A stretch of DNA of 64,000 bases from Vulcanimicrobiota bacterium. GTDB lineage: Bacteria; Vulcanimicrobiota; Xenobia; Xenobiales; JADMJV01. Numbering within the stretch: the stretch's first letter is position 1; each line of letters starts with the position of its first letter. The position numbers were made by a program, and so were the translations under genes. Below, in pieces: positions 28,616 to 59,817 of this stretch. Under the pieces are notes generated by a model. That model made no database searches and was not told the origin of the DNA. It saw nothing but the letters and a program-made list of their open reading frames with translations. The stretch lies in contig JBFWNU010000007.1 of the NCBI GenBank assembly GCA_050250895.1, positions 369,030 through 433,029 on the forward strand, given 5' to 3'.

Positions 28616-29437
28616 ATGGCACGAATCAAGAACTGCACTCTTTGCCTCACTCTGGTGGCCATACTCTGCGTGCTGGCCTGGGCTCAGGCACGCTACGAGG
28701 TGGCCACCGACCAGGCTGCGGTGATCCAGGTCAGCGGTACCGTCGAGGGACGGCCTGCCGGCCAATCCAGCTGGAGGCCTCTGGTCGAATCCAGCCTGCT
28801 GCGGGCCGGAGATAGAATCCGGACTCGTTCCGGTTCAGGAGCGGCCATTCTGCTGAGTGACCAGACCATCATGAAGTTGGCCGAGAACACCGAGTTGCTG
28901 TTGGTCGATCTTCGCCTGAGCGAGAATGGCAATTGGATCCGGCGTTTCCAGTTGCAGGTGGGGCGCGTCTGGTCGGATGTCACGCCGATGGAACGGTCGG
29001 ATTCCATTTTCGAGGTCAGGGGTCCCGATGCCATGGCCGCTGTCAAAGGGACAGCCTTCGAAGTCGAGGTCGATGCCGAGGCAACCGAGGTCCGGGTTTG
29101 GGAGGGGTCGGTGCTGGCTACCCGGGAGGACGGTCAAGCCTCGGATCTGGTGGGGGCCGACCCCCGCTTTGCTCACAATCGTTTCCGGGTAGCCCGGGGC
29201 GGTGCCGTCAGCCGCTCTCGCTTTTCGTCCAGCCAGGCCGACCCCTGGCAGAAATGGAACCTCGAGAACCGGAGAGCGCTGCTCAAACTGCGCCAGTCCA
29301 AGCATCTCGATTCCGCCCAACTCAAAGCCATTCGGCAGCGGTTCAAGCAGTCGCCGCTACCCGCTCGCCAGCGCCTGCGACGCGGAGGAGCCGAGCGGCC
29401 CGGGCCAAGCCCCCTCAGGCCTCGAACTCGGCGATGA
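28616..29437 (+). CDS. FecR-domain periplasmic protein
   Basis: Signal peptide; GDRIRT, AAVKGTAFEV, VRVWEGSV. Confidence 0.85.
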   Translation: MARIKNCTLCLTLVAILCVLAWAQARYEVATDQAAVIQVSGTVEGRPAGQSSWRPLVESSLLRAGDRIRTRSGSGAAILLSDQTIMKLAENTELLLVDLRLSENGNWIRRFQLQVGRVWSDVTPMERSDSIFEVRGPDAMAAVKGTAFEVEVDAEATEVRVWEGSVLATREDGQASDLVGADPRFAHNRFRVARGGAVSRSRFSSSQADPWQKWNLENRRALLKLRQSKHLDSAQLKAIRQRFKQSPLPARQRLRRGGAERPGPSPLRPRTRR

Positions 29438-31248
29438 AGCGGTCTGGACTGATCTGGCTTGCGGTAGTCGCCCTCGGCTGGCTGTTGGCGGGAGCCCGCG
29501 CCATCGAGTTTGCCGATCTCCGGTGTTACGATCTGGTGCTTGCCGGGCGACCGCGACAGCCGCTCGATGAGCGCATTCAACTCGTGGTCGTGGATTCTAA
29601 CTCGCAAGAACAGTTCGGACGCTGGCCCTTTCCTCGTGAACTGCACGCCGACCTGATCGAGCGCCTCCAGCAGGCAGGCGCCGCCTTGATTGCCTTTGAT
29701 GTCTCCTTTGCCCACGCCACGGCTCAGGACGAAGTTCTGGCTGCCGCGATGCGCTCGTCGGGGAGAGTCTGGCTGGTGCGAACCTACGAGCGGGATGCCC
29801 AGGGAAACCTGAAAGAGGACCGGTTGGCCCAGCCTCTGGTCGAAGCGGCAGCCGGAATTGCCAGCCCGCGCGTGGTGCGTGACGCCGATCACAAGGTGCG
29901 TCGGGTCAGCCTGGTCGACGACCCGCCACCTCTGGCCAGGCAGGTGGTAGAGGCTTTTACCGGGCAGACTTTCGTGCCCGGCGTGCCGGCCCTGGCCACC
30001 GAGGCTCACCTGGGCGACGAAGCGATTCCCACCTTCGGACCGCGCAATCAGTTGCTGCTGGATTTTGCCAGCGATATCACGCCCAACCTGAATTCCTACG
30101 CCTGGGTGCTGCAGGCCCCACCCGAAGAACTCCAGAGACGTTTCGCGGGCCGAATCGTGCTGGTGGGATCGGGGACCGACTTCAACGACTTTCTCACCGT
30201 GCCCGTGGCCGTCAAGACCCACCCTGACGGCGGCGGGCTTGAGGGCGAGAGGGGAGGGGTCGCCGGTTTCGTGGTCCACGCCCTGGCTATCGATACCCTG
30301 CTTGACCCGGACCCGGTGCGCTGGCAGCCACTCTGGCTCGACCTGCGGCGCCGCCACGACGTGTGGGCCGGGGGATTCACGGTGGGCGCCATTCTCTGCG
30401 GTTTCTTGGGACTGGGGGACCGCGTCTGGTCCAATCATCGGAGCGGACGGCGGGCCCTGATGGTGGCTTGCATTTTTCCGCTGATGACGGCCGGTGCGTT
30501 CCTGGTGACGGGAGTCTTTTGGTTTAGCGCCCTGCCTGTCACGATGGTGGCTGTCTATGGGGCTATCTCAGCTGCTTTTGATAGCCTGCGCGTGCGCGGG
30601 TTGCTCAAGAATTTCATGCCGGCCGAGGATATCGAGGCGATGCTGGCCACCCCCGAGCGGCTTCAAGAGGAACAGCGCTTACAAGAGGTGACGGTGATGT
30701 TCGTGGACCTGCGAGACTTCACGACTTTGAGCGAGAAGGTCGATCCGGCCACCTTGCGGGCGGTGGTGTCAGATTTTCACGATGTGGTGGGACGGGTTTG
30801 TCAGGTCTATGGCGGCTATATTACCGATTTCCAGGGCGATGCTCAGATGATGGTCTTTGGCCTGAGCGAGGCTTCGGCCGACCACGCTCGCTGCGGCCTC
30901 CAGGCCGCGCTGGAACTAAAGCCCCGGCTGGAACAACTCAACGCCCGCCTCGACCCCAGGGTGGCTGCTGCCCACGGCCGCCTGGGCTGGGGCGCAGGCC
31001 TGGCCACCGGCCAGGTTTCGGTGGGCTATCTACGGGGCGGCGGTCATCTCCAGTACACGGTACTGGGCGACGCTTGCAACACGGCCGCTCGCCTCCAAGG
31101 CGTGGCTCGCGATCTGGACACCCTGGTGGTGGTCAGCTACACCACGGCCAGCAATTGCTCAGGTTTCGACCTGCGCGAGCAGGGTCAGGTGCCACTCAAG
31201 GGCAAAGCTGAGCAGCACAGAATCTATTCGCTGACGCACCCTTCTTGA
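29434..31248 (+). CDS. CHASE2-domain class III nucleotide cyclase
   Basis: ATGA overlap with FecR stop; GRWPFPRELHA and IAFDV CHASE2; TM helices; MFVDLRDFT, GDAQM, LGDACNTAARL. Confidence 0.9.
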   Translation: MKRSGLIWLAVVALGWLLAGARAIEFADLRCYDLVLAGRPRQPLDERIQLVVVDSNSQEQFGRWPFPRELHADLIERLQQAGAALIAFDVSFAHATAQDEVLAAAMRSSGRVWLVRTYERDAQGNLKEDRLAQPLVEAAAGIASPRVVRDADHKVRRVSLVDDPPPLARQVVEAFTGQTFVPGVPALATEAHLGDEAIPTFGPRNQLLLDFASDITPNLNSYAWVLQAPPEELQRRFAGRIVLVGSGTDFNDFLTVPVAVKTHPDGGGLEGERGGVAGFVVHALAIDTLLDPDPVRWQPLWLDLRRRHDVWAGGFTVGAILCGFLGLGDRVWSNHRSGRRALMVACIFPLMTAGAFLVTGVFWFSALPVTMVAVYGAISAAFDSLRVRGLLKNFMPAEDIEAMLATPERLQEEQRLQEVTVMFVDLRDFTTLSEKVDPATLRAVVSDFHDVVGRVCQVYGGYITDFQGDAQMMVFGLSEASADHARCGLQAALELKPRLEQLNARLDPRVAAAHGRLGWGAGLATGQVSVGYLRGGGHLQYTVLGDACNTAARLQGVARDLDTLVVVSYTTASNCSGFDLREQGQVPLKGKAEQHRIYSLTHPS

Positions 31249-32243
31249 TGCCGCTCGTTTCCTTTCTTCTGCCTGTTCGCAACGCTTTGTCCACTCTCGA
31301 GGCCGCCATCGCCAGCCTGCGGTGGCAGACTTTCACCGATTGGGAGGCGGTGGTGGTGGACGACGGGTCGAGCGATGGCAGTTCGCAACGGTTGGCCGAG
31401 TTGGCTTCACTCGATGCTCGCTTGCGCGTCTTTTCTCGCCCCCCGGCCGGACTGGTGGCCAGTTTGAACTTTGGCCTGGCCCAATGCACGGGTCGTTTCG
31501 TGGCTCGCATGGATGCTGACGACATCTGTCACCCCCGCCGCCTCGAACGGCAACTAAGCTGGCTCGAAGACTTCGAGGTGGTCGGTTGCGGCACCCGGAT
31601 CTTCCCCATGACCGAGGTTCGGTGCGGCTTTCGGCGCTATCAAGATTGGCTCAACTCGCTGCTCACTCCCGAACAACATCGGCGCGATCTGCTGGTAGAA
31701 AGTCCCCTGGTGCATCCTTCGGTCACACTGCATCGCGAGTGGCTCGAAGCGGTAGGTGGCTATCGCGACCAGGGCTGGGCTGAGGACTACGATCTCTGGC
31801 TGAGATTGACCGAGAGGGGTGCCCGCCTGGTGAAAACCCCCGAGATCCTGTTCTTCTGGCGCGACCGACCCACGCGGATGACACGCACCGATCAAGCTTA
31901 TAGCGCCGAACGCTTGCGGGCTTTGAAGGTGAACTTCTTACTGCGCAACCACCTCGATGCTCAGCGCCAGGCCGTCATCTGGGGGGCCGGGCGTAACGGC
32001 AAGCGATTGGCCCGCGAGGTAGTCCGGCAAGGTGGACGGGTGGCCGCCTTTGCTGACCTTCACCCCGGCCGCATTCATCAACGCATCGACGACATCCCGG
32101 TCTTGCATCCCCAGGCGGTGAGCAGGGCTCCCGAGTTGCTGCACCTGTCGGCTGTCGGTCAGGACGGCGGTCGAGCCCAGGTGCGGCTGGAGGCACGCCG
32201 GCTGGGGCTCGAAGAGGGGAAAGACTTTCTATGTCTGGCCTGA
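31245..32243 (+). CDS. Glycosyltransferase family 2
   Basis: LLPVRN, VDDGSSD, ARMDADD, AEDYDLW; C-terminal IWGAG Rossmann-like extension. Confidence 0.9.
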   Translation: MMPLVSFLLPVRNALSTLEAAIASLRWQTFTDWEAVVVDDGSSDGSSQRLAELASLDARLRVFSRPPAGLVASLNFGLAQCTGRFVARMDADDICHPRRLERQLSWLEDFEVVGCGTRIFPMTEVRCGFRRYQDWLNSLLTPEQHRRDLLVESPLVHPSVTLHREWLEAVGGYRDQGWAEDYDLWLRLTERGARLVKTPEILFFWRDRPTRMTRTDQAYSAERLRALKVNFLLRNHLDAQRQAVIWGAGRNGKRLAREVVRQGGRVAAFADLHPGRIHQRIDDIPVLHPQAVSRAPELLHLSAVGQDGGRAQVRLEARRLGLEEGKDFLCLA

Positions 32244-32305
32244 ACAGCGCAAATGGTGCCCCCGCCAAGCGGGCGAGAGGGGTGAAAAAAAAATCCGCGA
32301 ACTTG

Positions 32306-32331
32306 GGAACCCAGTTCAGGGATCTTGCGTT
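32306..32331 (+). promoter_or_regulatory. Putative ECF sigma promoter of the MNIO precursor
   Basis: GGAAC (32306-32310)-N17-CGTT (32328-32331), 40 nt upstream of the ATG; AGGAGG RBS follows. Confidence 0.5.
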
Positions 32332-32371
32332 AGGATACCCGTAAAGTTCCGAACCATTAGAGGAGGGTTAG

Positions 32372-32896
32372 ATGAATCGAAGAGATTTTACCAAGATGAT
32401 GGCCGCAGCGGTAGCCGGAATGGTTGCCGGAGCCAAGGTGCTGCCTGCCCAGGCGAGCGAAGGCTGGATGTCTGACAAAGACGGCTGTGAAGGCAAAGAC
32501 GGCTGCAAAGGCAAGGACGGCTGCGAAGGTAAGGACGGCTGTAAGGGCAAGGACGGCTGTAAGGGCAAGGACGGCTGCGAAGGCAAGGACGGCTGTAAGG
32601 GCAAGGACGGCTGCGAAGGCAAAGACCACTGCAAGGGCAAGGACCACTGCAAGGGCAAAGACGGCTGTGAGGGCAAAGACGGCTGTAAGGGCAAAGACGG
32701 CTGTAAGGGCAAAGACGGCTGTAAGGGCAAGGACGGCTGCGAAGGCAAGGACGGCTGTAAAGGCAAGGACGGCTGTAAGGGCAAGGACGGCTGTGAAGGT
32801 AAAGACGGCTGCAAGGGTAAGGACGGTTGCGAGGGCAAAGACAAAGCCAAGGATGGCTGCAAAGGCAAAGACGGCTGCGGCGCGACTCGCAGTTAG
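32372..32896 (+). CDS. Tat-exported Cys-rich repetitive MNIO RiPP precursor (bufferin/oxazolin-like)
   Basis: MNRRDFTK twin-Arg motif, AQA cleavage site, then 22 Cys mostly in C[KE]GKD[GH] hexapeptides; immediately upstream of DUF692. Confidence 0.85.
   Translation: MNRRDFTKMMAAAVAGMVAGAKVLPAQASEGWMSDKDGCEGKDGCKGKDGCEGKDGCKGKDGCKGKDGCEGKDGCKGKDGCEGKDHCKGKDHCKGKDGCEGKDGCKGKDGCKGKDGCKGKDGCEGKDGCKGKDGCKGKDGCEGKDGCKGKDGCEGKDKAKDGCKGKDGCGATRS
32477..32882 (+). repeat. 18-bp coding tandem repeat (about 22 units)
   Basis: aargacggctgyrarggy units, varying mainly at wobble positions, encoding KDGC[KE]G. Confidence 0.95.
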
Positions 32897-32940
32897 TCAA
32901 CCCTTAGCAGGCTCAATGGTCATCTGACCAAGCCTACCCG

Positions 32941-32967
32941 AGAAGGCCACGCCAGTGGCCTTCTTTC
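32941..32967 (+). terminator. Hairpin between precursor and DUF692 (leaky terminator or mRNA stabiliser)
   Basis: Perfect 10-bp stem AGAAGGCCAC/GTGGCCTTCT with GCCA loop and a short T tail. Confidence 0.6.
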
Positions 32968-33023
32968 ACGAGCGGCCGGGTTTATGCGGGCCGCGAAACG
33001 TGCATGAGAGCAAAGGAGGCAAG

Positions 33024-33893
33024 ATGGTAGCCAACCGCTGGAATATCCCCGACTATGGGCTCGGCATGGGACTGCGCACGGTGCATTACGAGCATATCTT
33101 GACCCACAAGCCCCAGGTCGATTTCTTCGAGATTATCTCGGAGAACTTTCTCTCGACCCAGGGCCGGCCCTTGCACCTGCTCGATGAAATCGCATCGAAG
33201 TATCGCATTTTGATGCACGGTGTCTCGATGTCGGTGGGCAGCACCGACCCTCTCGACTTCGATTATCTAGGCAAGCTGAAAGCTCTGGCCAACCGCCTGA
33301 AGGTCCCGTTCGTGTCCGACCACCTTTGCTGGACAGGAGTATTGGGGCGTAACACCCACGACCTGTTGCCTGTTCCCCTGACCGAGGATTCGCTCCGCCA
33401 TGTCGCCGGCCGAGTGCGGGTGATCCAGGACTTTCTCGAGCTGCCGGTGGCCCTCGAAAACCCCTCCAACTATCTTGAGTTCAGCGTGTCTCAGATGGGT
33501 GAGGCCGAGTACATGGCCCGCCTGACCGAAGAGGCCGACTGCGGCTTGCTCCTCGATGTCAACAATGTCTACGTCAGCGCCTTCAATCATGGCTTTGATC
33601 CCGACGAGTATATTCAGGCCGTGCCGGTCGAGCGCATCCTCTATCACCACGTTGCCGGTCACACCCACAAGGGGACGCACATCGTCGATACCCACTCCGA
33701 CCATGTAGTCGAGAAAGTGTGGGAGATGTACGAGGCGATGCACATGCGCACGGGTGGACGCAGCACGATGGTCGAGTGGGATGATGACATTCCGGCCTTC
33801 GAGATCGTCCATCAAGAGGTTCTCAAAGCTCAGGTGTACCGCGACCGGGCCGAGGCACGACTGACCGAGAAAGAGGCTGTCGGTGGCCACTGA
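33024..33893 (+). CDS. DUF692 multinuclear non-heme iron oxidase (MNIO; BufB/HvfB-like)
   Basis: GLGMGLR, FFEIISENF, HGVSMSVG, VSDHLCW, HDLLPVP, ALENPS, LLLDVNNVYV, HVAGH, VDTH, VEWD; AAGGAGG RBS. Confidence 0.95.
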   Translation: MVANRWNIPDYGLGMGLRTVHYEHILTHKPQVDFFEIISENFLSTQGRPLHLLDEIASKYRILMHGVSMSVGSTDPLDFDYLGKLKALANRLKVPFVSDHLCWTGVLGRNTHDLLPVPLTEDSLRHVAGRVRVIQDFLELPVALENPSNYLEFSVSQMGEAEYMARLTEEADCGLLLDVNNVYVSAFNHGFDPDEYIQAVPVERILYHHVAGHTHKGTHIVDTHSDHVVEKVWEMYEAMHMRTGGRSTMVEWDDDIPAFEIVHQEVLKAQVYRDRAEARLTEKEAVGGH

Positions 33894-34722
33894 TCAAATC
33901 GATCTACGCGAACTTCAGACCTGGCTGCAGACTTTCATCGTCACCCCTGGCGGCAGCCGCGACGCTATCGAGGCCGCCGAACGGGCCGCCGGCCTCGAGC
34001 AGGGCTCGGTCGAGAGAATGGTTCTGCCCTCGAAAACCCTCTCCCCGCTGCAACGCCTCGAGATCTATCGCGGGATGTATCTGCTGCGGATGGAAGAGGC
34101 GCTCGGCATCGACTACCCGGCCGTGCGTCATCTGGTAGGGGCCAAGGCCTTCTTTTCTATGGTGGCTGAGTACGTAGAGGTCCACCCCTCGAGGTCTTAC
34201 ACTCTGGACCACGTAGGGCGCCATTTCGCCGAGTTTCTGGCTCGGAGCGGCCATCCGCAGGCCGGTTTGCTGGGAGATCTGGCCCGACTGGAGTTCGCCA
34301 TGAATGAGGTCTTCCACGAGCCCGAGACATCGGTGTTGAGCCCTCTCGACCTGGCCGCCATCCCCCCCGATGACTGGGAGTGGGCCCGGCTTGAACCCAT
34401 CGCCGCTCTGCGTTTGCTAGAAACCGATTATCCGGCCAACGAGTATTTCACCGCTTACAACAACGACCGCCGGCCGCCCGCGGATCTTGGTCCCCGGGCC
34501 AACCGGGTGGTGGTGTGGCGTCAGCAGTTCAAAGTCTGGCGCATGCCTCTCGAACCGGCCGCTTTGCAATTGTTGCAGTTGTTGACCTCGGGATTGCCGT
34601 TGGGGCAGGCGCTCGCCGCCACGGCGGCCGAGAGTCCCCTGGTCGAAGACCAGCTCTTTGATTGGTTTAGCTCATGGGTGGGTGAAGGCATGTTCAGCCG
34701 CATCACCACCATCAGGCAGTGA
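33883..34722 (+). CDS. DUF2063 MNIO partner protein (BufC/HvfC-like)
   Basis: RLEIYRGMY..R..EAL..DYPAV..LVG..F, HPSRSYTL, DLARLE, VVWR; overlaps the DUF692 stop. Confidence 0.9.
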   Translation: MATDQIDLRELQTWLQTFIVTPGGSRDAIEAAERAAGLEQGSVERMVLPSKTLSPLQRLEIYRGMYLLRMEEALGIDYPAVRHLVGAKAFFSMVAEYVEVHPSRSYTLDHVGRHFAEFLARSGHPQAGLLGDLARLEFAMNEVFHEPETSVLSPLDLAAIPPDDWEWARLEPIAALRLLETDYPANEYFTAYNNDRRPPADLGPRANRVVVWRQQFKVWRMPLEPAALQLLQLLTSGLPLGQALAATAAESPLVEDQLFDWFSSWVGEGMFSRITTIRQ

Positions 34723-35780
34723 GGGCCGCTTTCGCGCTCTGGCTGGCGATCCTGATGGGGGCGCCGGCCTGGGCCCAGAACCAGGTTGTGGAGAGTTTGG
34801 ACCTCGAGCTGGGCAACTACACCTGGCGGGCCCTGGTGTCGGCCCCCGTCGAGGGGCGCCTGGAAGTCAGTTTTCTGACTGGCCAACGTCTTTTCGCGGT
34901 GGGTCCCGAGCCCCGTTGGGTGGCCATGACCTGCCCCTGGGCGCCCGAGTGGGGAGCGGCTCGACTGGCCTGGCGGGGGCCCGAGGGAGTCAGGCTCGAG
35001 CGCTCGCAAGTCATCCCCATCAAGTTCGCCGTCGATCCTACCGTCGAGGCCGGCGACGACGGCCAGCCTCTGGTTCGATTTGGCTTTCTGGGCACTCCTC
35101 CCGAAGAGGCCAAGCTGCAGGTGCCCCAGGAAGCAGTCCCGCCAGGTGATCCGATTCGCTGGCGGGTCGACGATGCCGAGGGTGTTCCCCTCCACGGCGG
35201 CGGCGAGGTGGTCGCTCGGCTGGCCGAAGTTCGGGCCTATCGGCCTGAGCTGGTGCTCTCCCTCGAGCAGCGGCCGCAGCAGAGCTTTCCCTTAGAGTTG
35301 ACCGACCGGATCGTGCTCGAGATTCCCGACCAGCTGCCGGTAGCGGCGGTGGCCGACTGGATCGACCGGGCGCACCGGCTGGCTCCGCCCCAGGGGGTCT
35401 ACCTGCGGGCTCGCGGACCCCAGGTAGAGCGCCAGGTCTGGCTCGCTTTGCACCATCGGGCCGAGGGGGTGTGGCTGGACGCGATGCCCGAACGCCTGCG
35501 TGACGAAATGGCCCGGGTGGCCGATTATCTCAAGGACGGGCCGGTGGCCGTGCCCGGGGCGGCCGCTCTGTCGATCAGGGTCTGGCGCGGCGACGGGGCC
35601 AGCCTGCTTTCGGTGGTCAATCTTAGCCAGCAAGCTCAAGAAGGCCGGCTGCGCCTGGGGCCTGAGGTGGGCAGGGTTTTTGGGCTTCCCGACGGAGCTC
35701 CAATCGAGCCCGTCGAGGGGGAGTTGATGTTGCGACTTTCGGCCGGAGGAGTCGCTCTCTATATCCTGGAGGCGCGCTGA
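34719..35780 (+). CDS. Secreted hypothetical protein
   Basis: Signal peptide ending APAWA; GTGA coupling to DUF2063. Confidence 0.65.
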   Translation: MRAAFALWLAILMGAPAWAQNQVVESLDLELGNYTWRALVSAPVEGRLEVSFLTGQRLFAVGPEPRWVAMTCPWAPEWGAARLAWRGPEGVRLERSQVIPIKFAVDPTVEAGDDGQPLVRFGFLGTPPEEAKLQVPQEAVPPGDPIRWRVDDAEGVPLHGGGEVVARLAEVRAYRPELVLSLEQRPQQSFPLELTDRIVLEIPDQLPVAAVADWIDRAHRLAPPQGVYLRARGPQVERQVWLALHHRAEGVWLDAMPERLRDEMARVADYLKDGPVAVPGAAALSIRVWRGDGASLLSVVNLSQQAQEGRLRLGPEVGRVFGLPDGAPIEPVEGELMLRLSAGGVALYILEAR

Positions 35781-37636
35781 TGGGTTGGGCCCTGCTGGTA
35801 TGGGGACTTTTGCCTCTGGCCGCCTGCGCCTACAAACCTCGCTTTGGCTACTGGGCCGTGGCCGTCTGGTTGCTGCTGGCTCCCACTGGCAAGGGCCTGT
35901 GGTTGTTGCATGAGCTGGGAATTACTCCGAAAGCTGGTGCCTGGGAGTATCTCTGGGAAGTGAGCAATGGACTGGCGCTGGTGGGTTTCTCTCTGTTGGT
36001 GTGGCCGCGCCTGGCTCCGCTGATCATGGTCGTGCTAGCCGGTTTACTCTCGGTCCTGGCCCTGGGAGACCTGCTCTACTATCGTTATCTGCAAGATTTC
36101 GTGAGCTGCGATCTCTACAGCGGGGCTCCCCAGTTGGTCAGCATCACCGACAGTATCCGCGCCCTGCTCGAGCCGGGCGACGGCTGGCTTTTTGCTGACC
36201 TGGTGCCGGTGGCCATGGCGGCTGGTTGGGCGATCAGGCGAGCCGATGACAAGGTGGAGTGGCGACGTCTGGGTGCCATGGCTCTGGCCGGGTGGCTGAT
36301 GGTCAGCGGCCTCTATGTCGCTCGCATGCCGAGCAGTCAGAACACCTTGCTGGTAAAACGCTTTCGCAACTCCGCCATCCTTAAAGAGTTGGGCCTGCTC
36401 AACTATCACGTCTACGATGTCTATCAAGCCCTCGAGCGCCACAGCGGTGCGCTTGGAGCCTACGAAAAGGATCCTCGGCGGATCGCCGAGGCGCTGCAGC
36501 AAGCGAGGCAGGCCAACCACCGACCCACCGCTCTGCAGGGTGTGTTGCGGCACAAGAACGTCATCATGGTGCAGATGGAGTCCTTTCAGGACTTCGTACT
36601 CGGGCTCGAGGTCGATGGTCAGGAGGTCACACCTTTTCTCAACCGGATGGCCGGCCAGTCGCTACGATTTGATCTGTTCGATCAGTCCCACTATGGACGC
36701 TCGTCTGACGGCGAGTTCGTGATGCTCAACTCGCTCCACCCCCCTCCTACCCGCCCCCTGTGTTACGCCTTTCCGTCCAACCACTATTACGGCTTGCCGG
36801 CCGCCCTCACTTCGGCCGGCTATCGCACCCTGTATGTGGTTCCGTATCTTGGCTCCTTCTGGAACGCGCGCAGGATGAGTTCGGCTTACGGCTTCGCGAG
36901 CGCCAGGTTCCGAGACGACTTGCCGCCGGCCGACTCGGACGAAAGCCTGGGCTGGGGGATGACCGACAAAGCTCTGTTCCGGCGCGTGGTGCGTGAAGTG
37001 TCGGCGGGGGATGAACCGTTCTTTGCTTACGTCGTGACACTCGGGGGACACCATCCCTACGATGAACTCTCGCCCAGCCAGCGCGAACTTCGATTGCCCG
37101 CTGAGCTCGAGGGTTCTCTGTTGGGTGACTACCTTCAGTGCTGCCGTTTTCGCGACCACGCGATCGAGAGCCTGATGGGGCAACTCGAACAGACCGGTCT
37201 GGCCCCGGACACGGTGGTGGTGCTGGTGGGTGACCACGATGCCGGGATTCCGGCCGACCAGTTGGAGAAGATCGGGGTCGAGAAGTTTCCCTGGAGCGAC
37301 CAGATTCCGGCCATCATTTGGGCGCCGGCGGAACTCCAACCCCAACACAGCCATCAACTCGCCGGCCAGATCGACCTGGCCCCAACCCTGGCTCACCTGT
37401 TGGGTGTCTCAGACCCCCGGCTGGTCTTTCTGGGACGCAACCTTCTGGGTGAACCTCGGCAGTGGCTGGTCTCGCGACCCGGGTATCTGGTCGATGGCCA
37501 ACACCGCTGGTTTAGTCTGGAAGACGCGAGCGAGCAGCAGGGCGCCGAACTCATCGAGGCCGGCCGTCGCGAACTCGACATTTCTCAGGCCATCCTACAG
37601 GGGGACCAGATCCCGATGCTAAAGGAGAGGTCATGA
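35780..37636 (+). CDS. LTA synthase family / sulfatase-like membrane protein
   Basis: About 5 TM helices, then NVIMVQMESFQ, GRSSDGEF, FWNAR, HHPY, VGDH, QIDLAPT. Confidence 0.88.
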   Translation: MGWALLVWGLLPLAACAYKPRFGYWAVAVWLLLAPTGKGLWLLHELGITPKAGAWEYLWEVSNGLALVGFSLLVWPRLAPLIMVVLAGLLSVLALGDLLYYRYLQDFVSCDLYSGAPQLVSITDSIRALLEPGDGWLFADLVPVAMAAGWAIRRADDKVEWRRLGAMALAGWLMVSGLYVARMPSSQNTLLVKRFRNSAILKELGLLNYHVYDVYQALERHSGALGAYEKDPRRIAEALQQARQANHRPTALQGVLRHKNVIMVQMESFQDFVLGLEVDGQEVTPFLNRMAGQSLRFDLFDQSHYGRSSDGEFVMLNSLHPPPTRPLCYAFPSNHYYGLPAALTSAGYRTLYVVPYLGSFWNARRMSSAYGFASARFRDDLPPADSDESLGWGMTDKALFRRVVREVSAGDEPFFAYVVTLGGHHPYDELSPSQRELRLPAELEGSLLGDYLQCCRFRDHAIESLMGQLEQTGLAPDTVVVLVGDHDAGIPADQLEKIGVEKFPWSDQIPAIIWAPAELQPQHSHQLAGQIDLAPTLAHLLGVSDPRLVFLGRNLLGEPRQWLVSRPGYLVDGQHRWFSLEDASEQQGAELIEAGRRELDISQAILQGDQIPMLKERS

Positions 37637-38295
37637 CTGTAGATCATCTTTTGAAGACGACCCGCGCGGTCCGAAAACGTCTGGACCTGGAGCGCGAGGT
37701 TCCCGACCAGGTTCTCTATGATTGCCTGCAATTGGCCATTCAGGCCCCCACCGGTTCAAACCAGCAAGGCTGGCGTTTTCTGGTGGTGCGCGAGCCCGAG
37801 CGCCGCCAGGCTTTGGCCGACCTGTATCGCGAGGCCTTTGGCATCTATTCCAAGCAACAGGCCTCGGCGGGAGGCTCCTATAGCGGAGACGATCCTCGGG
37901 CCAAACGCTTGATGCCGGTCATCAAGTCGGCGGTGCATCTGGCCGAGAACATGCATCGAGTCCCGGTGCTGTTGATTGGCTGCGTCCAGGGGAGGGTAGA
38001 GGATCAGGGCCTGTTGGCCCAGGCCTCGCTCTACGGTTCGATCCTACCGGCTATGTGGTCGCTCCAGCTAGCCCTGCGCTCGCGCGGATTGGGCTCGGCC
38101 TGGACCACCCTTCACCTGATGTTCGAAGAGAAAGCCCGCGACTTGCTGGGGATTCCCGACGATTATACCCAGGCTTGTCTGTTGCCGATTGCCTATTACA
38201 AAGGCGAGGATTTCAAGCCGGCCAGCCGACTGCCGGTGGAGAAGGTGACCTTTTTGGACCGCTGGGATCAGCCCTTCCCAGGCCAGGGGAGTTAG
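37633..38295 (+). CDS. Nitroreductase family protein
   Basis: TTRAVRK, APTGSNQQGWRFLVV, LALRSRGLGSAWT. Confidence 0.92.
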   Translation: MTVDHLLKTTRAVRKRLDLEREVPDQVLYDCLQLAIQAPTGSNQQGWRFLVVREPERRQALADLYREAFGIYSKQQASAGGSYSGDDPRAKRLMPVIKSAVHLAENMHRVPVLLIGCVQGRVEDQGLLAQASLYGSILPAMWSLQLALRSRGLGSAWTTLHLMFEEKARDLLGIPDDYTQACLLPIAYYKGEDFKPASRLPVEKVTFLDRWDQPFPGQGS

Positions 38296-40379: not shown

Positions 40380-40958
40380 ATGTCCATGCAAACGATTGAA
40401 AGATTTTTAAGCGATCTCGACGGAAAACTCTGTGGGGTGTGCGATTGCCAGCGGGCGGTAGAACAGACCGCTAGCATTTTAGAGCGCTACACCGCCGAGC
40501 ATTTTCCGCTGCCTGATCGCCTGACCACACTGGGCAGCAGCAAATACGCTCGTCATCTCGTCTATCACAGCCCCGACTGTGGTTGTTGCGTGGTGGCTAT
40601 GGTGTGGGGTCCGGGGCAGGGCACGCCCGTGCACGACCACGCCGGTACGTGGTGCGTGGAAGGCTGCGTCCAGGGACGGTTGCGGATCACCAACTATCGG
40701 CTCGACGAAGAATTGGCCAACGACCGGGTGCGCATGACCCGCCAGGAGAGTATCGAAGTGCGTCCTGGAGCGGTGGGTAGTCTGATCCCGCCTTTCGAAC
40801 ACCACACCATCGAAAACCCCTTTGATGAACCCGCCATCACCCTGCATGTCTACGGCAAGGAACTTGACGTCTGCACCCGCTTCGTGGAAGAAGAGCCGGG
40901 CATTTATCGGGTAGAGCGGGTCAACATGGCCTACTGCTCGGTGCCCGCTTCAGCCTGA
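40380..40958 (+). CDS. Cysteine dioxygenase type I family protein
   Basis: YARHL, WGPGQGTPVHDH, HTIEN, ITLHVY cupin 3-His motif. Confidence 0.9.
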   Translation: MSMQTIERFLSDLDGKLCGVCDCQRAVEQTASILERYTAEHFPLPDRLTTLGSSKYARHLVYHSPDCGCCVVAMVWGPGQGTPVHDHAGTWCVEGCVQGRLRITNYRLDEELANDRVRMTRQESIEVRPGAVGSLIPPFEHHTIENPFDEPAITLHVYGKELDVCTRFVEEEPGIYRVERVNMAYCSVPASA

Positions 40959-46901: not shown

Positions 46902-49538
46902 CTAGGGATTCCCGCCGCCGGCTTCGGCCTTGAGAGTGACCGTCACCAGCTGCTCGGGGTCGAGCCGTTTCTTGGCGGTTTCGAGCAACTCCTTGGGGCC
47001 AAGGCGCCGGTAGATGCCCGAAAAGCCCTCGGTGTAACTGTCGGCCAGGCGGTGGAATTCCAGGTTCGCCAGCAATTCAGCCCGGCCGGCAGCGGTGCCC
47101 TGAGAGACCTGTAGTTTGCCCTCGAGCGAGCGCACAGCCTGTTCGATTTCGGAGGGGCTGGGCGCCTGCCGGCGCAGCGTGTCGATCTCTTGGCGCACGG
47201 CCTGATCGGCGGCCGCTTCCTGACCTGGCTTAAGACGAAGCGTGATGGCCCAGGGGGCAGGCCCTGAGGACGAGACCAGGCGGCTGGTAACCTGAGCGGC
47301 CAACTGGTCTCGATCCCGAAGTCGAAGAGCAAGCCTGGAAGTGATGGGATTTCCCCCGAGGATCTGGTTGAGCAGATTGAAGGCGTAAAAGTCTGAATCC
47401 CGGCGGGAGGGGCCCAGCTGGCCCATCACCATCAGCGAGTTGGCCCGCTCGGTCTTGAACTCGACCGCCTGGGGCTGGGGGGTCGGGACCGGCGGAACGG
47501 TAATCAGGGGGGCAGTCTGTTGCACATACCAGGCTGTGAGGTCGGGGCGCAGCAATCGCAGCACGGTCTCGTTAGAGACATCGCCCGAGAAGACCAGCAC
47601 CAGGCGGTCGGGACGGGTGATGCGGCGCATGTGAGCCAGCACCTCGGCTCGGCTGGCGGTGGACACCACGGTGGGATTGCCGGTCAGCGATTGGCCGAAC
47701 GGATGGCCCGCTGGAAAGAGGCGGGACCGAAGTTCGATAGCCGCCCGCGAGACGGGATTGGCTAACTCTCGATTGTGCTCGGCCAGAGCCCGCAGACGCA
47801 CCCGTGCGATCGCCTCCTCGTCGGGGGCGGCCCGCCGAAGAGCATCGGTCAACATCGCCATGAAGGCCGGAAAGTTAGCCGACATGGTCCAGCCTTTGAT
47901 GGCGATCACCTCTTGATCGGGTTCAAAGGTCAGCTCGGCTCCCAGGTCTTGAAGGTCCCAGGCAAAAGACTCTCCCGGGCGCTCGCTCGTCCCCTCGCCC
48001 AGTAAGGATCCGGCCAGATAGGTAAGCCCGGGGCGATCGAGGGGGTCGAGCAGCGTGCCGCCCTTGAGATAGCCCCGCACCGTGACGGTGGGCAGGTCCG
48101 AGACGGTCTGGACCAGCACGGTCATTCCGTTCTCGAGTTCGTGGCGGGTGAAGGCAGGCGGGGGTGGAGCCGGCTGTTCGTCGACCTTCCACTCGCTCGC
48201 CTGGGCCACCGGTCCGGGCCCAAGCTCGGTGCGGGCTTCGTCGTCTGGGGCCGGGGCGGGAGTCGAAGTAGGAGCGCTGCCCGTCAGGCGTCCGATGGCG
48301 GCTTCGGGAAACTTGAGCACGGCCCTGGCCGTCTCGAGCAGCTGTTTTCCGGTCACCTTCTTGAGCTCTTCGGGCATGTGGACCATCTGGTCGAGCCGGC
48401 CTTCGGCCTGGCGCACGGCCAGCAGGCTGGCGCGACGGCCCGGGCTCTCGAGTTCACGATAGAAGCTGGCCAGGGCGCGATCGCGGGCGGTCTGCAGTTG
48501 ATCGGGCAGCAACTCGGTGCCGGTGAGCCGATGGACTTCGCTGGCGACGTGTTCTTCGACCTGGGCTACCGTTTCTCGCGCGTTGGGATTTAGTCGTAAG
48601 CGATAGAAGGTCAGCTCGGGCGAGAACTGGCTGGTCAAGGTGCGGCCGGAGTGGGCCAACTGGCCTCCCGAACCGCCGGTCAAGGCTGCATCGAGCAAGT
48701 ACAGCTCGGCTAGAGAGGGAGGGGTGTCGGGTAAGGGAAAGAGCATCTCCAGCGTGGGGGGACCCAGTTCGTCGACCTGCAGGCCAGTGCGTTTGGGGGC
48801 GGGGCGCGGCGTCGTCTTGACCGGCGTCGTGGCCTCGACCGGGGCCGGGAACAGGGTGCGCAACTTGCGTCGGACCAGCCGGGGCGAGAAGCCTCCGACC
48901 ACCACCAGCACGGCATTCTCGGGAGCAATGCTGGCGGCGTAGCGACTTTGAAGCTGGGCCAGGGTGATGTCGCGCAGTTCGGTGGGACGGCCGGGCGAGG
49001 GCCCCAGGGTCGGCCACAACCCCTCGGTCAGCCGTCGCAACACGCGGGATTCTTGCGATTCGTCGGCGGCCATCTCCCACAGGGCCAGTGACTTCTCGCG
49101 AGCCAGATCATTTTCGTCGGCATACAGTTCGTGCAAACGGTCGGCTTGCGTCTTGAGGGAAAAATCCAGATACTGAGCGGGCAGCGTCTCCCAGAAGAGG
49201 ATATAGTCGGGCGAAGTCCGGGCTCCGGCCCGCGCCCCGATCTGTTCGAGATTGACCAGCAGCTGGCCGTTAGGGTAGGTCCGGGTGGCGCGAAAAAGCA
49301 GATGCTCGAGCAGGTGGGCTTCGCCCGAACGTCCTTCGCCGTCGTGACGCGATCCTGCCGGCACCACCAGCGCCACCGACACCGACGGCAGGTCGGGAAG
49401 GGCCTGCAAGAGCACGGTGGGCGCGCCGGGCTGCTGGATCCGTTCGACCAGGCCTCCGGGCAACTCGAGCAGGTCGTCGGCCAGAGCCGCGCAACTCAAG
49501 GCGGCCAGCCCGATCATCAGGAGCAACACTCTTCTCAT
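46902..49538 (-). CDS. M16 (pitrilysin-like) zinc peptidase, two-domain, exported
   Basis: Signal peptide; AHLLEHLLF inverted HxxEH; second half begins HELENGMTV; upstream TTGACA-N16-TATAGT. Confidence 0.9.
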   Translation of the reverse strand: MRRVLLLMIGLAALSCAALADDLLELPGGLVERIQQPGAPTVLLQALPDLPSVSVALVVPAGSRHDGEGRSGEAHLLEHLLFRATRTYPNGQLLVNLEQIGARAGARTSPDYILFWETLPAQYLDFSLKTQADRLHELYADENDLAREKSLALWEMAADESQESRVLRRLTEGLWPTLGPSPGRPTELRDITLAQLQSRYAASIAPENAVLVVVGGFSPRLVRRKLRTLFPAPVEATTPVKTTPRPAPKRTGLQVDELGPPTLEMLFPLPDTPPSLAELYLLDAALTGGSGGQLAHSGRTLTSQFSPELTFYRLRLNPNARETVAQVEEHVASEVHRLTGTELLPDQLQTARDRALASFYRELESPGRRASLLAVRQAEGRLDQMVHMPEELKKVTGKQLLETARAVLKFPEAAIGRLTGSAPTSTPAPAPDDEARTELGPGPVAQASEWKVDEQPAPPPPAFTRHELENGMTVLVQTVSDLPTVTVRGYLKGGTLLDPLDRPGLTYLAGSLLGEGTSERPGESFAWDLQDLGAELTFEPDQEVIAIKGWTMSANFPAFMAMLTDALRRAAPDEEAIARVRLRALAEHNRELANPVSRAAIELRSRLFPAGHPFGQSLTGNPTVVSTASRAEVLAHMRRITRPDRLVLVFSGDVSNETVLRLLRPDLTAWYVQQTAPLITVPPVPTPQPQAVEFKTERANSLMVMGQLGPSRRDSDFYAFNLLNQILGGNPITSRLALRLRDRDQLAAQVTSRLVSSSGPAPWAITLRLKPGQEAAADQAVRQEIDTLRRQAPSPSEIEQAVRSLEGKLQVSQGTAAGRAELLANLEFHRLADSYTEGFSGIYRRLGPKELLETAKKRLDPEQLVTVTLKAEAGGGNP

Positions 49539-49619
49539 AGGCGTCTACTATATAGGTTGCAGCCCGCCTGTCAACTCGCGGAGGGGTTTCTGCTTCGGCA
49601 CCCGAAGGGGGTTCGCCCT

Positions 49620-51284
49620 ATGTCGGCCGGTTCTGAATCAGCCATACCAGAATCACCGTTTCCAACCTGGGGACCCAACGGGATCGCCGCCAGCGATCAC
49701 CGGCTGGCTTCTCAGGCCGCTTGCGAGGTGATGTCTGAGGGGGGGAACGCGGTAGACGCCGCCATCACGCTGTCGCTTACGCTGGGAGTGCTTTGCCCTC
49801 ACTACACCGGCGTCGGCGGGGGTGGCTTCTGTCTCTTTTGGCTGCCGGGTTTTGAACGACCCAGGGTGCTCGACTATCGCGAGACGGCCCCGGCCGCCTC
49901 CAAGCCCGGGATGTTCAGCGACACCCGCCGGGCCAGTACCCGAGGGGCCCTGGCCCCGGGCACCCCGGGCACGGTAGCCGGGTTGGCCGAACTGCTCGAG
50001 CAACACGGCACCATCTCCTGGGAGCGAGCCCTGGCTCCGGGCCTGGAGCTGGCCGAGAAGGGTTTTCCGACTTATCCCAATCTGCGCCGGGTCATTCTGG
50101 GACGGCTCAAAATGCTGTCGGAGTATAGCGAGACGGCCCGAATCTTCGTCACCGAGACGGGCCAGGGGCCCCTGCCCGGTCAACTGCTGCGCCAGCCCGA
50201 CCTGGCTGCCACCTATCGGCGGTTGGCCGAACACGGGCCGCGTGAGTTCTATGAAGGCGAGACGGCCGAACGGATCATCGCGGAACTCGACCGCGGCGGG
50301 GGAGTCATGACCCGCCAGGATCTGGTGGACTATAAGCCTGTCTGGCGCGAGCCGATTTCGGCCCTTTATCGGGGTCGCGAGGTCTTCACCATCGGACCTC
50401 CCTCGGGAGGTGGGATCCAGCTGCTCCAGATGCTGCAGATGCTCGAACCGTTCGATTTTCCACCGGCCAAGCTGGGTTCGGCAAGAACCTATCACCTTCA
50501 GTGCGAGGCGATGAGGATCTCCTTTGCCGACCGCTCTTCCTGGATCGCCGATCCGGCCTTTTTCGAAGTGCCCGTCGAGGCCATGCTCGACCCGGGCCGG
50601 ATCGCCGATCTGCACTTGCTCATCGACCCGCGACGGGCCAACGAGCTCGTCGAGATGCCTCCCCTGGAGGGTTATCTAGCGGCCGGTCAGAGCCTGCCTG
50701 GTCAGGGGGGGACGGCTTCGTTTTGCACGGCCGACAGTCAGGGCGGCTTCGTGGTGGCCACCGAGTCGGTCAATCTCTGGTTTGGCTCGATGGTCATCGC
50801 CCCGGGCACCGGGGTCGTGCTCAACGACATCATGGACGACTTCAGCCAGCGCCCTGGCACACCCGACGCCTTCGGCCTGGTGTCTTCGCGTATCAACCAG
50901 GTCGAGGCCAACAAGCGACCGGCTTCGAGCAGCACACCGGCGCTGGTTTTCGAGGACGGCAGGCCGATCATCGGCTCCGGCTCGGCCGGTGGCCCACGCA
51001 TTGCCACCTCGGTCTTCCAGATTCTGACCCACTTGCTGGACCATCGTCTCAACGTGCGCCAGGCCATGGACGCGCCCAGGATACACCATCAGTGGCTACC
51101 CAACGAACTGGTGGTGGAGCGTTTCGTGCCTGAGGACGTGCGCAAAGGACTGCGAGCTCTTGGGCATCGAGTCGCCGAAGGTCCGGCCCGCAGCCACGGC
51201 TGCGCCATCGCCTGGCACGAGGAAGACGGCCTCTACTACGGAGCCGGCGACTTCAGGTCCGGCGGAGCCGCGGCCGGCTGCTGA
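49620..51284 (+). CDS. ggt: Gamma-glutamyltransferase
   Basis: GGNAVDAA, GVGGGGF, LDYRETAP, GTASF (Thr nucleophile), LNDIMDDFS, PRIHHQWLP. Confidence 0.95.
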   Translation: MSAGSESAIPESPFPTWGPNGIAASDHRLASQAACEVMSEGGNAVDAAITLSLTLGVLCPHYTGVGGGGFCLFWLPGFERPRVLDYRETAPAASKPGMFSDTRRASTRGALAPGTPGTVAGLAELLEQHGTISWERALAPGLELAEKGFPTYPNLRRVILGRLKMLSEYSETARIFVTETGQGPLPGQLLRQPDLAATYRRLAEHGPREFYEGETAERIIAELDRGGGVMTRQDLVDYKPVWREPISALYRGREVFTIGPPSGGGIQLLQMLQMLEPFDFPPAKLGSARTYHLQCEAMRISFADRSSWIADPAFFEVPVEAMLDPGRIADLHLLIDPRRANELVEMPPLEGYLAAGQSLPGQGGTASFCTADSQGGFVVATESVNLWFGSMVIAPGTGVVLNDIMDDFSQRPGTPDAFGLVSSRINQVEANKRPASSSTPALVFEDGRPIIGSGSAGGPRIATSVFQILTHLLDHRLNVRQAMDAPRIHHQWLPNELVVERFVPEDVRKGLRALGHRVAEGPARSHGCAIAWHEEDGLYYGAGDFRSGGAAAGC

Positions 51285-58810: not shown

Positions 58811-59698
58811 TCAATTGAGGTCTCCTTCGTTGGTTACCAGGTAGGCCACCCCCTCGCCCGCTTGCATCCGGGCAAACAGTTCCGGCAAACGCTGCAGCGG
58901 ATGTTTGCCCGAAAGCATGCGATCGGGAAGCTCGCCTAATCGCTGTTCGGCCAGGGTCAGATCGGCGGCCGCCAACGGCCCCGTCCCGCGCAGCGTCAGC
59001 TGGTCGTAGTGCAGCCGAGTGCAATCGAAACGGGTCAGGCCGGCCCCGGGACCCGCAAACAGAACCGTCCCGCCACGGGCCACCAGCCGGGTGGACAGTT
59101 GTCGGATGGTGTCGTTGCCACTGGCCTCTAAGAGCAGTTCGATGGGATGGCTGCGAAAGTTTTCGGCCGTCATCGGTCCGTCGAGTTCCATGGATTGGCT
59201 GGCCCCGAGCTCGACCGAGAGTTCGAGCGCGGTCGGCAAGCTGCCCACCACCCAGGGAGTGGTATCTTCCATCAAGGCCACCAGGCAAAGCCCCATAAAG
59301 CCCGCTCCCATCACCGCCGTCGCATCGGGAAGCTCGCCCACTTCGCGCAACACCCGCAGGGCCAGGGCGATGGGGCAGAGCATGGCATCGGGCCCGAACA
59401 GTTGCGCCCGCGGGATCAAACGCTCGGCCGGCAAGATGAGATATTCGGCCAGGGGGCCGCTGTAGTAAGCCACCACCGGCTGGCCTCGACGCCAGCCGAT
59501 CACGTTGGCCCCGATCTGCAGCACCTCTCCGGCGATGGGAACCGCGGCCCGAAAGGTGCCAGATTGAAAGTCGCGCAGGTGGTTCTCGTCGACCACCGCC
59601 GAGGTGAAGCGAACGGCCATCTGCCCCGGCTCGGGGGCGGGAGCGTCAGACTCGACCATGGTGGCCTGACCCGGTCCATCTGCTCGGCAGAACAGCAT
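58811..59698 (-). CDS. Degenerate MDR-superfamily protein lacking zinc ligands
   Basis: GroES-like start (PEPGQMAVR, GEVLQIG), GAGFMG, LEASG, RLHYDQLTLRG; catalytic Cys/GHE and Zn lobe absent. Confidence 0.7.
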   Translation of the reverse strand: MLFCRADGPGQATMVESDAPAPEPGQMAVRFTSAVVDENHLRDFQSGTFRAAVPIAGEVLQIGANVIGWRRGQPVVAYYSGPLAEYLILPAERLIPRAQLFGPDAMLCPIALALRVLREVGELPDATAVMGAGFMGLCLVALMEDTTPWVVGSLPTALELSVELGASQSMELDGPMTAENFRSHPIELLLEASGNDTIRQLSTRLVARGGTVLFAGPGAGLTRFDCTRLHYDQLTLRGTGPLAAADLTLAEQRLGELPDRMLSGKHPLQRLPELFARMQAGEGVAYLVTNEGDLN

Positions 59699-59817
59699 TG
59701 GCGCTACTTTCGCGGAGGCTGGCGGTGTCCTGCCGAGAAATCATGAACTTGGCTGTAACACTCGCCAGGGTCGGCGGTCTAAGCCCATGTCAGACACGAG
59801 AGCGGAGGAGTTCGAAG

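Follow-up and report, generated by a model that had tools for sequence, protein, structure and literature searches.

The 64,000-nucleotide stretch analysed here (hereafter the window; positions 369,030 to 433,029 of contig JBFWNU010000007.1, from a Vulcanimicrobiota bacterium) carries a three-gene cluster for a ribosomally made, post-translationally modified peptide (RiPP), consisting of a Cys-rich precursor, a multinuclear non-haem iron-dependent oxidase (MNIO; DUF692) and a DUF2063 partner protein. The reading that we favour, at a probability of about 70%, is a cluster of the bufferin/captophorin type, whose precursor cysteines would be converted to 5-thiooxazoles and whose product would be exported by the twin-arginine translocation (Tat) pathway as a periplasmic copper buffer. 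The cluster is real, conserved and of a known class, and its precursor lies outside both curated precursor families. A preliminary description of this DNA had proposed a RiPP module of an MNIO and DUF2063 whose Cys-rich precursor is exported; family scores and the fold of the partner uphold that identification, and the differences from known systems that it listed are only partly distinctive.

Assignment to a bufferin/captophorin-type A–B–C cluster follows from the MNIO, which passes the BufB cut-off, and from the partner, which folds like NGO1945. The MNIO, correctly described as following the precursor gene directly, scores 338.7 bits on PF05114 and 330.9 bits on NF050167 (MNIO_BufB), above the equivalog cut-off of 310, and the HvfB, ApyH, ChrH and MbnB models all remain below their own cut-offs (251.1 bits against 360 for NF003818 HvfB). 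The closest solved structure is 3BWW (E 1.1e-52). Ten positions of the enzyme (H, H, E, D, N, H, D, H, E and D) align with MbnB (7DZ9) and are invariant in 22 homologues; we take the iron ligands among them to be those of MbnB. An E-W-D motif is likewise invariant in the 22 homologues. The residue that follows its Asp is D in the window's enzyme and D, E, A or G, never Phe, in relatives; this residue is reported to be Phe in Lys-Cys (EGKCG) enzymes and Asp in Cys-Lys enzymes (PMC13097082). The ATG listed in Table 1 is most likely the start of the gene, rather than the GTG further upstream, because AGGAGG lies 5 nt ahead of it and homologues align only from there.

The partner is a PME type 1 protein as defined by Antoine et al. 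It matches PF09836 (DUF2063) at 66.8 bits, with NGO1945_C at 23.8 bits (cut-off 27) and NF050145 HvfC at 47 bits (cut-off 142) both under threshold. Sequence searches of the PDB, with the single sequence and with a profile, returned nothing relevant, but a fold search with the AlphaFold model (predicted local distance difference test, pLDDT, 92.3) did match, with 3DEE/NGO1945 as the best hit (E 4.9e-6; template-modelling score 0.71 by target) and TglI (8HI7_A), which partners the MNIO TglH, next. The locus therefore has each gene-level feature by which we recognised bufferin/captophorin clusters: an MNIO of the BufB/HvfB/FonB group with conserved ligand positions, a partner combining DUF2063 with a RiPP recognition element (RRE) fold directly after it, and a precursor upstream.

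The expected chemistry comes from characterised members of this class, which has been described as one of the most widespread kinds of RiPP system and has an established role in copper stress for its model members. An MNIO and a PME1 are reported to be both necessary and sufficient for BufA1 to acquire thiooxazoles, and bufferins to protect against copper, with DoxX dispensable (PMC11626156). The signal peptide is also described as dispensable for BufA1 modification. All MNIO–PME1 clusters tested in a later study are reported to install 5-thiooxazole and to bind Cu, and the oxazolin product was revised there to 5-thiooxazole from oxazolone/thioamide (PMC13097082). By analogy with these systems (PMC11626156, PMC13097082), the polyvalent periplasmic copper binder suggested in the preliminary description would be the best expectation from the family. 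MNIOs are described as catalysing many reactions, and a different one (e.g. oxazolone-thioamide formation or carbon excision), with a product that serves some role other than copper buffering (another metal, or redox), could be imagined for a precursor that falls outside every curated precursor model and has no copper gene nearby. We consider this very unlikely, given an MNIO above the BufB equivalog cut-off that clusters with BufA2-associated MNIOs; non-isofunctional MNIOs, as described, form separate clusters, mostly without PME type 1 partners.

Reading of the open reading frame (ORF) reproduced the precursor exactly as first described: 174 aa with 22 Cys, of which residues 39–158 form 20 contiguous C[KE]GKD[GHK] hexapeptides, followed by a KAKDG break (the AKDG interruption of the earlier account), a further CKGKDG at residues 163–168 and a final Cys inside CGATRS. 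The total is 21 near-identical hexapeptides, with a Cys–Cys spacing of 6 residues throughout and a single exception of 10. Nearly all of the mature part (146 aa, ~14.7 kDa, isoelectric point 8.3) is G, K, D, C and E. At the DNA level, Tandem Repeats Finder reports a period of 18 at 32476..32842 (20.4 copies, 85% matches, score 440). The 20 contiguous units comprise 14 distinct DNA strings and only 5 distinct peptides, with the variation concentrated at third codon positions and in a K/E switch (294 synonymous versus 149 non-synonymous pairwise codon differences), which argues that what is preserved in the repeat is the peptide encoded by this frame. The alternative frames of the array also hold long ORFs, which are by-products of the repeat.

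The composition of the array also raises the question of whether it is a RiPP core at all, or instead a bacterial collagen-like Gly-X-Y domain or low-complexity DNA. The hexapeptide amounts to two G-X-Y triplets, the longest uninterrupted run is 21 triplets, and Pfam Collagen (PF01391) scores 60.5 bits on the precursor against a cut-off of 27.2. Furthermore, the only longer 'homologues', five sequences of at least 306 aa that were discarded as candidate Cys arrays, are true collagen-like proteins; the absence of longer relatives that this leaves is weak evidence. Nevertheless, such a reading is extremely improbable in our estimation. The precursor has no trimerisation or anchoring domain and does not qualify as a collagen-like protein, and orthologues whose MNIOs are 75–76% identical (L003, L005 and L006) are Cys-rich with G-X-Y runs of just 3–6 triplets. 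Strict linkage of the precursor to the MNIO and PME1 in 8 of 8 genomes and a codon pattern indicative of selection on the peptide also argue against it.

AlphaFold2, supplied with a 9-sequence alignment, modelled the precursor at a pLDDT of 39.9 with secondary structure limited to the signal helix, and the array is accordingly predicted to be disordered, without a folded core. A left-handed beta-helix (3 hexapeptides per turn, Cys inside) was considered and found no support in this model, although a weak model is not counter-evidence. The residue after Cys (C+1) is K at 13, E at 8 and G at 1 of the positions in the window's precursor, and K at 67, E at 14, P at 14 and others at 27 across 8 orthologues. 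Such a mixture would suit a variant in which the same cluster modifies a subset of Cys, for instance the 13 Cys-Lys, and leaves the rest as disulfides or thiolates in a mixed thiooxazole/metallothionein-like product. Precedents are the outer Cys of Buf1 and Buf2, described as unmodified and disulfide-bonded (PMC11626156), and the Cys-flanking residues reported to gate FonB turnover (PMC13097082). We think partial modification improbable on balance: the array has neither a distinct 'outer' Cys pair nor a folded core, and all EGKCG repeats in fontiphorin and oxazolin are reported to be modified (PMC13097082).

Searches with the precursor sequence added little. No match in the Protein Atlas reached 0.9, leaving leads only. 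Sequencing runs matched at small word shares (maximum 0.09), through short contigs 90–99% alike that derive from relatives in bioreactor or wastewater runs, two of them RNA libraries; none of these contigs spans the array. The window's genome has one precursor and one MNIO of this family, with no second copy of either, and no array longer than the window's was found among genome and metagenome relatives, in searches that were not exhaustive.

Conservation delimits the system. Seven genomes, from the window's genus and a sister genus, encode an MNIO with 70% identity or more, and in every one the gene upstream specifies an M[NK]RR[DEQ]F[TN][KR]xMAAAVAG... signal followed by a CxGKDG-type array with 12–19 Cys. 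A precursor with a signal stands directly upstream of the MNIO, its linkage to the MNIO and PME1 is strict in 8/8 genomes, and the A–B–C order is tightly spaced with flanking genes that differ among relatives; the conserved module is A–B–C only. A third genus in the family has MNIOs that are 59–63% identical; BufA2-type precursors with signals that lack the twin-arginine (RR) pair occur at 4 of its 6 loci, and no precursor was found at the remaining 2.

A wider scan for the signal-peptide pattern, restricted to one genome per species, returned 41 loci. Ten are hexapeptide-type: 6 carry a Vulcanimicrobiota or Candidatus Xenobia label, and of the 4 that do not, L029 and L035 are contigs assigned to the window's own genus and family. 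BufA2-like cores are found in the remaining 31, which belong to Acidobacteriota, Pseudomonadota, Myxococcota, Planctomycetota and Armatimonadota. An MNIO lies directly downstream at 32 of the 41, accompanied by DUF2063 at 31, and the 9 loci without one comprise a locus cut by a contig end and 8 apparent orphans. These orphans (L030, L038, L045 and L051, of Xenobia type; L046, L047, L048 and L052, from Vicinamibacteria) show no MNIO in the available stretch and resemble second copies; CSGKDGCNGK and CSGKCSGKDQ are examples of the variant repeats that some of them carry.

The BufA2 model (NF050166) separates the two kinds of precursor: 30/30 non-hexapeptide precursors match it, 12 of them at or above the 60-bit cut-off, compared with 1/10 hexapeptide-type relatives (23.3 bits; no match for the other 9). 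L043 was excluded from this comparison, its frame continuing into the MNIO. At that locus (L043:6001-6972, Acidobacteriota), a 323-aa ORF contains the MNIO match in three pieces, with the likeness of a frameshift or misassembly. P0003, a metagenomic peptide whose signal is all but identical to that of the window's precursor, belongs clearly to BufA2 (75.6 bits on NF050166). In the MNIO tree, which has a midpoint root and whose rows are kin, the 8 hexapeptide-associated enzymes form one group (Shimodaira–Hasegawa-like approximate likelihood-ratio test, SH-aLRT, 99) nested among BufA2-associated MNIOs. We suggest that a BufA2-type core gave rise to the array in one Xenobia lineage, its C-K-G-K-x-x-C module having been homogenised and expanded by tandem duplication.

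The hexapeptide also occurs outside this group. A metagenome scan for three perfect CKGKDG units found 12 loci, 3 of them RR-type, the largest with 20 Cys. Five have MNKSTR-type non-RR signals and 4–7 units, some fused to a BufA2 core, with an MNIO (48–51% identical) and DUF2063 adjacent; the remaining 4 show no MNIO in the available stretch. The MNIOs of the non-RR hexapeptide set form a distant clade (branch length 1.3), which implies that the hexapeptide expanded in at least two lineages. Separately, P0120, a 228-aa DoxX protein (PF07681/PF07291), has a C-terminal second hydrophobic stretch followed by DKDGCKAKDGCKGKEGCGGKDGCGGKKKE; this fusion joins a CxGKDGC peptide to DoxX, whose gene is the fourth in bufferin clusters, and so links the motif to that gene.

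Judged from its sequence features, Tat is the most likely export route of the modified peptide. The N-terminus of the precursor, MNRRDFTKMMAAAVAGMVAGAKVLPAQA followed by S, is signal-like, and its NRRDFTK leader and AQA site are as first described; TIGR01409 (Tat signal) scores 18.2 bits against a cut-off of 16.7. Across 22 precursors from several phyla, at loci that had been collected with an RR pattern, signal residues M1, R3, R4, F6, M10 and G16 are invariant and K8 is nearly so. A scan of the 9.5-Mb genome for the strict pattern [STNKDGE]RRxF[LIVMT]K plus a hydrophobic stretch gave only 7 ORFs; one is the precursor, and among the rest are two molybdopterin enzymes, a flavin amine oxidase and a DUF1501 protein. 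TatC is encoded in the genome (213.9 bits), as are BamA and LpxC, the presence of which indicates that a periplasm exists (diderm). Mean h-region hydrophobicity is 1.91 for RR-type signals and 2.05 for non-RR relatives, and the h-region maximum of the window's own precursor is 1.86. All the features of a Tat substrate for which we looked (the motif, a weakly hydrophobic h-region and the Tat machinery) are thus present.

Sec export, as in the described bufferins, with the RR pair incidental, is unlikely by comparison, yet it deserves to be taken seriously. Published bufferin and oxazolin precursors are all described as Sec substrates, and a BufA1 signal is reported to have exported a reporter; the score on the Tat hidden Markov model is marginal; and sister genus g2 and Verrucomicrobia-like relatives carry non-RR signals on similar cores. 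An incidental pair is hard to reconcile with R3, R4 and F6 invariant and K8 nearly so across phyla, with the caveat that the RR pattern served to gather those loci, or with the motif being confined to 7 ORFs that include cofactor enzymes in a genome with TatC.

The contrast of Tat with Sec had been listed as a difference from known systems. The motif and TatC are consistent with it for this locus, but it does not set the locus apart: RR signals are common to BufA2-type precursors of Acidobacteriota, Pseudomonadota, Myxococcota and Planctomycetota. They also occur in Dataset S2 of PMC13097082 on DUF2282-, EGKCG- and CK-type precursors (e.g. rows 14356, 7356 and 14468), row 14356 combining a TRRDFLK signal with 10 EGKCG repeats. 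String counts in that dataset are 65 for RRDF, 31 for RRSF, 14 for RRNF, 9 for RRTF, 2 for RRQF and 1 for RREF. Leprevost 2024, Antoine 2025 and Gadgil 2026 use neither 'Tat' nor 'twin-arginine' anywhere in their main texts, and literature searches combining twin-arginine with MNIO, or bufferin with Tat, found nothing relevant.

The unusual conservation of the signal peptide across phyla suggests a further, distinctly speculative idea, namely that a functional RR signal may serve twice, as the RiPP leader for the DUF2063-RRE partner and as the Tat targeting signal. In that case, passage to Tat would be reserved for peptide that has been modified in full and let go by the partner, perhaps with copper already bound. 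The RR-bearing BufA2-, DUF2282- and EGKCG-type precursors of other phyla, together with this one, would then be the first Tat-exported RiPPs, and such precursors could carry copper out of the cytoplasm, beyond periplasmic buffering.

Taken together, we propose the following course for the favoured reading. The host would be a diderm Vulcanimicrobiota/Xenobia-like bacterium that makes the precursor in excess over the enzymes, as a conserved hairpin between their genes suggests. In the cytoplasm, the MNIO–partner complex would oxidise the Cys of the disordered array to 5-thiooxazoles, with 4 H lost per Cys, in a probably iterative reaction modelled on the characterised BufB, HvfB and FonB enzymes. 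The modified peptide would be exported post-translationally, most likely by Tat, the route for which the motif, h-region and TatC were seen. Cleavage between AQA and S would leave a mature product of ~14.7 kDa, in which thiol-bearing heterocycles, at most 22 of them, would recur at 6-residue spacing; this product may bind copper in the periplasm as a high-capacity buffer.

Several observations weigh against this proposal. The chemistry and metal binding of the locus are ones that we infer from characterised relatives, and the precursor itself fails the BufA2 model (25.4 bits on NF050166 against a cut-off of 60), with the match confined to the signal peptide and first repeats. Eight of its 22 Cys precede Glu, and FonBC, a Lys-Cys-type system, is reported to have left substrates with a charged residue after Cys unprocessed (PMC13097082), so that the number of modified sites may fall short of 22. 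Neither a copper-homeostasis gene nor a sigma factor nor DoxX is present in the 64-kb window (the genome has six DoxX genes, all outside it), and NrsF was not found in the genome. The support for Tat is that of a motif, with TIGR01409 just past its cut-off and Pfam TAT_signal not reported on the precursor at E <= 0.01; the difference in h-region hydrophobicity is small, and a test between related sequences overstates it. Finally, given the midpoint root, an origin from BufA2 is something that we infer from the tree rather than read from it.

The features of the locus and its immediate surroundings are listed in Table 1.

Table 1. Features of the precursor–MNIO–partner cluster and adjoining elements, in window positions.
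Feature	Positions	Strand	Remarks
Candidate extracytoplasmic function (ECF)-sigma-type promoter, GGGAAC-N16-GCGTT	32305..32331	+	41 nt upstream of start codon; weak
Ribosome-binding site GAGGAGG	32360..32366	+	5 nt ahead of ATG; read from sequence
Precursor peptide gene	32372..32896	+	174 aa, 22 Cys; read from ORF
Signal peptide, residues 1-28	32372..32455	+	NRRDFTK twin-arginine motif, Ala/Gly-rich h-region, cleavage between AQA and S
Hexapeptide array	32486..32875	+	20 contiguous units 32486..32845; KAKDG break; CKGKDG 32858..32875
Hairpin with 11-bp stem between precursor and MNIO genes	32940..32965	+	Possible attenuator, leaky terminator or mRNA-stabilising element
MNIO (DUF692), BufB-type	33024..33893	+	289 aa; from ATG 33024; open frame back to GTG 32955
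MNIO partner, PME type 1 (DUF2063 and RRE-like C-terminal domain)	33883..34722	+	Overlaps MNIO stop by 11 nt
Secreted protein, family unassigned	34719..35780	+	353 aa; overlaps partner gene
LtaS-like sulfatase-family membrane protein	35780..37636	+	
Nitroreductase	37633..38295	+	

Upstream of the precursor, no sigma-70-like site was found. The candidate ECF-type promoter recurs in a second genome of the same genus (G001) at a similar distance (-60 vs -66), with the rest of the spacer different. An ECF-type regulon was considered and rejected: GGGAAC-N16/17-GCGTT has 7 matches genome-wide, on a rough reckoning about the number expected by chance, and no sigma factor gene is preceded by one. For the 127-nt spacer that separates the precursor gene from that of the MNIO, the folding energy is -55.4 kcal/mol (z -3.43), a value equalled by 0/200 shuffles. 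A GC-rich hairpin is present in 7/7 orthologous spacers, mostly followed by a T-run, in sequences that are unrelated; a simple terminator scan missed the hairpin of the window, where the T-run is short. By acting as a stabiliser or a leaky terminator, the hairpin may increase the amount of precursor relative to enzyme.

The three genes 3' of the partner gene each overlap their predecessor by 1 or 4 bp. The first, encoding the 353-aa protein, adjoins the cluster in G001 as well (45% over 178 aa), and the other two do not recur; the Protein Atlas offered glycoside-hydrolase-accessory-like leads only for the 353-aa protein, all below 0.9. An extended operon with these genes was rejected because other relatives do not keep them in synteny with the cluster; they are not counted in the module. 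Upstream, 28616..31248 (+) encodes a FecR-domain protein followed by a large membrane protein whose C-terminus looks, by eye, like a nucleotide cyclase, and a family 2 glycosyltransferase gene (31245..32243) ends 128 nt ahead of the precursor gene. A type I cysteine dioxygenase (40380..40955, +), a gamma-glutamyltranspeptidase (49131..51281, +) and a 281-aa multi-EF-hand protein (59698..60540, +) are encoded 6-27 kb downstream. In the literature, EF-hand_5 domains occur fused to EGKCG precursors.

The locus extends the family into Vulcanimicrobiota/Xenobia, and illustrates how a core may be replaced by tandem expansion of a sub-motif as the signal peptide, enzyme and partner stay. With 21 near-identical hexapeptides and no predicted folded core, the array is the most regular natural substrate among the precursors found, and would make a clean test case for multi-site processing by one MNIO–partner complex and for gating by K versus E after Cys. 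The most useful lead is the undiscussed twin-arginine signal, which recurs across several phyla and in each of the three published groups of precursors.

Among known systems, bufferin 2 of Caulobacter vibrioides (BufA2-BufB2-BufC2; Buf_6/12Cys, NF050166/NF050167) resembles the window in its A–B–C order without DoxX, its BufB-equivalog MNIO, its PME type 1 partner and an exported, Cys-Lys-rich precursor with C-K-G-K-x-x-C, and BufA2 signal peptides (e.g. P0003) are homologous to that of the window. The lack of an adjacent DoxX, put forward earlier as a distinguishing trait, is not one, as the Caulobacter buf2 cluster is described as likewise without DoxX (PMC11626156). The core is what differs: in place of a 6- or 12-Cys unit (BufA2 pattern CKGxNxCKGxGGC..GDxGCxGKNSCKGKGGC), the window has a 21-hexapeptide array with 22 near-equally spaced Cys, behind a twin-arginine signal.

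The captophorin 'Cys-Lys' group (Gadgil et al. 2026, PMC13097082, Dataset S2) shares the MNIO–PME1 cluster, and its listed precursors include KDGCK/SCKGK repeats (e.g. rows 14136, 14137 and 14234). Repeat frequency in these listed precursors is at most 5, their signals are non-RR and several of them are BufA2-core hybrids; the window's precursor, by comparison, has 21 units behind an RR signal and lacks a BufA2 core. The claim of a distinct hexapeptide register is therefore narrowed to the homogenised form, since CKGKxxC is a BufA2 submotif and KDGCK is already in the captophorin dataset.

Long tandem Cys repeats with an MNIO and PME1 are shared with oxazolin, fontiphorin and gonophorin (HvfA, FonA; Buf_EGKCG), where every EGKCG repeat of fontiphorin and oxazolin is reported to be converted to 5-thiooxazole, with copper bound (PMC13097082). 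The very high copy number noted at the outset is high for this motif but not for the class, in which EGKCG precursors reach 58 Cys. The Buf_EGKCG unit is a pentapeptide with Lys before Cys, often in 17-residue super-repeats predicted to form a beta-helix, and is paired with an HvfB-type MNIO with Phe at the post-Asp position; that of the window is a hexapeptide with K/E after Cys and an MNIO with D post-Asp. EGKCG does not occur in the window's peptide, which falls outside Buf_EGKCG/oxazolin. Beyond RiPPs, Csp1 (a copper storage protein) and metallothioneins, for which no sequence relationship is expected, also use many Cys for high-capacity Cu(I) binding, in their case unmodified and, in Csp, within a folded four-helix bundle; Csp1 has been reported to carry a Tat signal.

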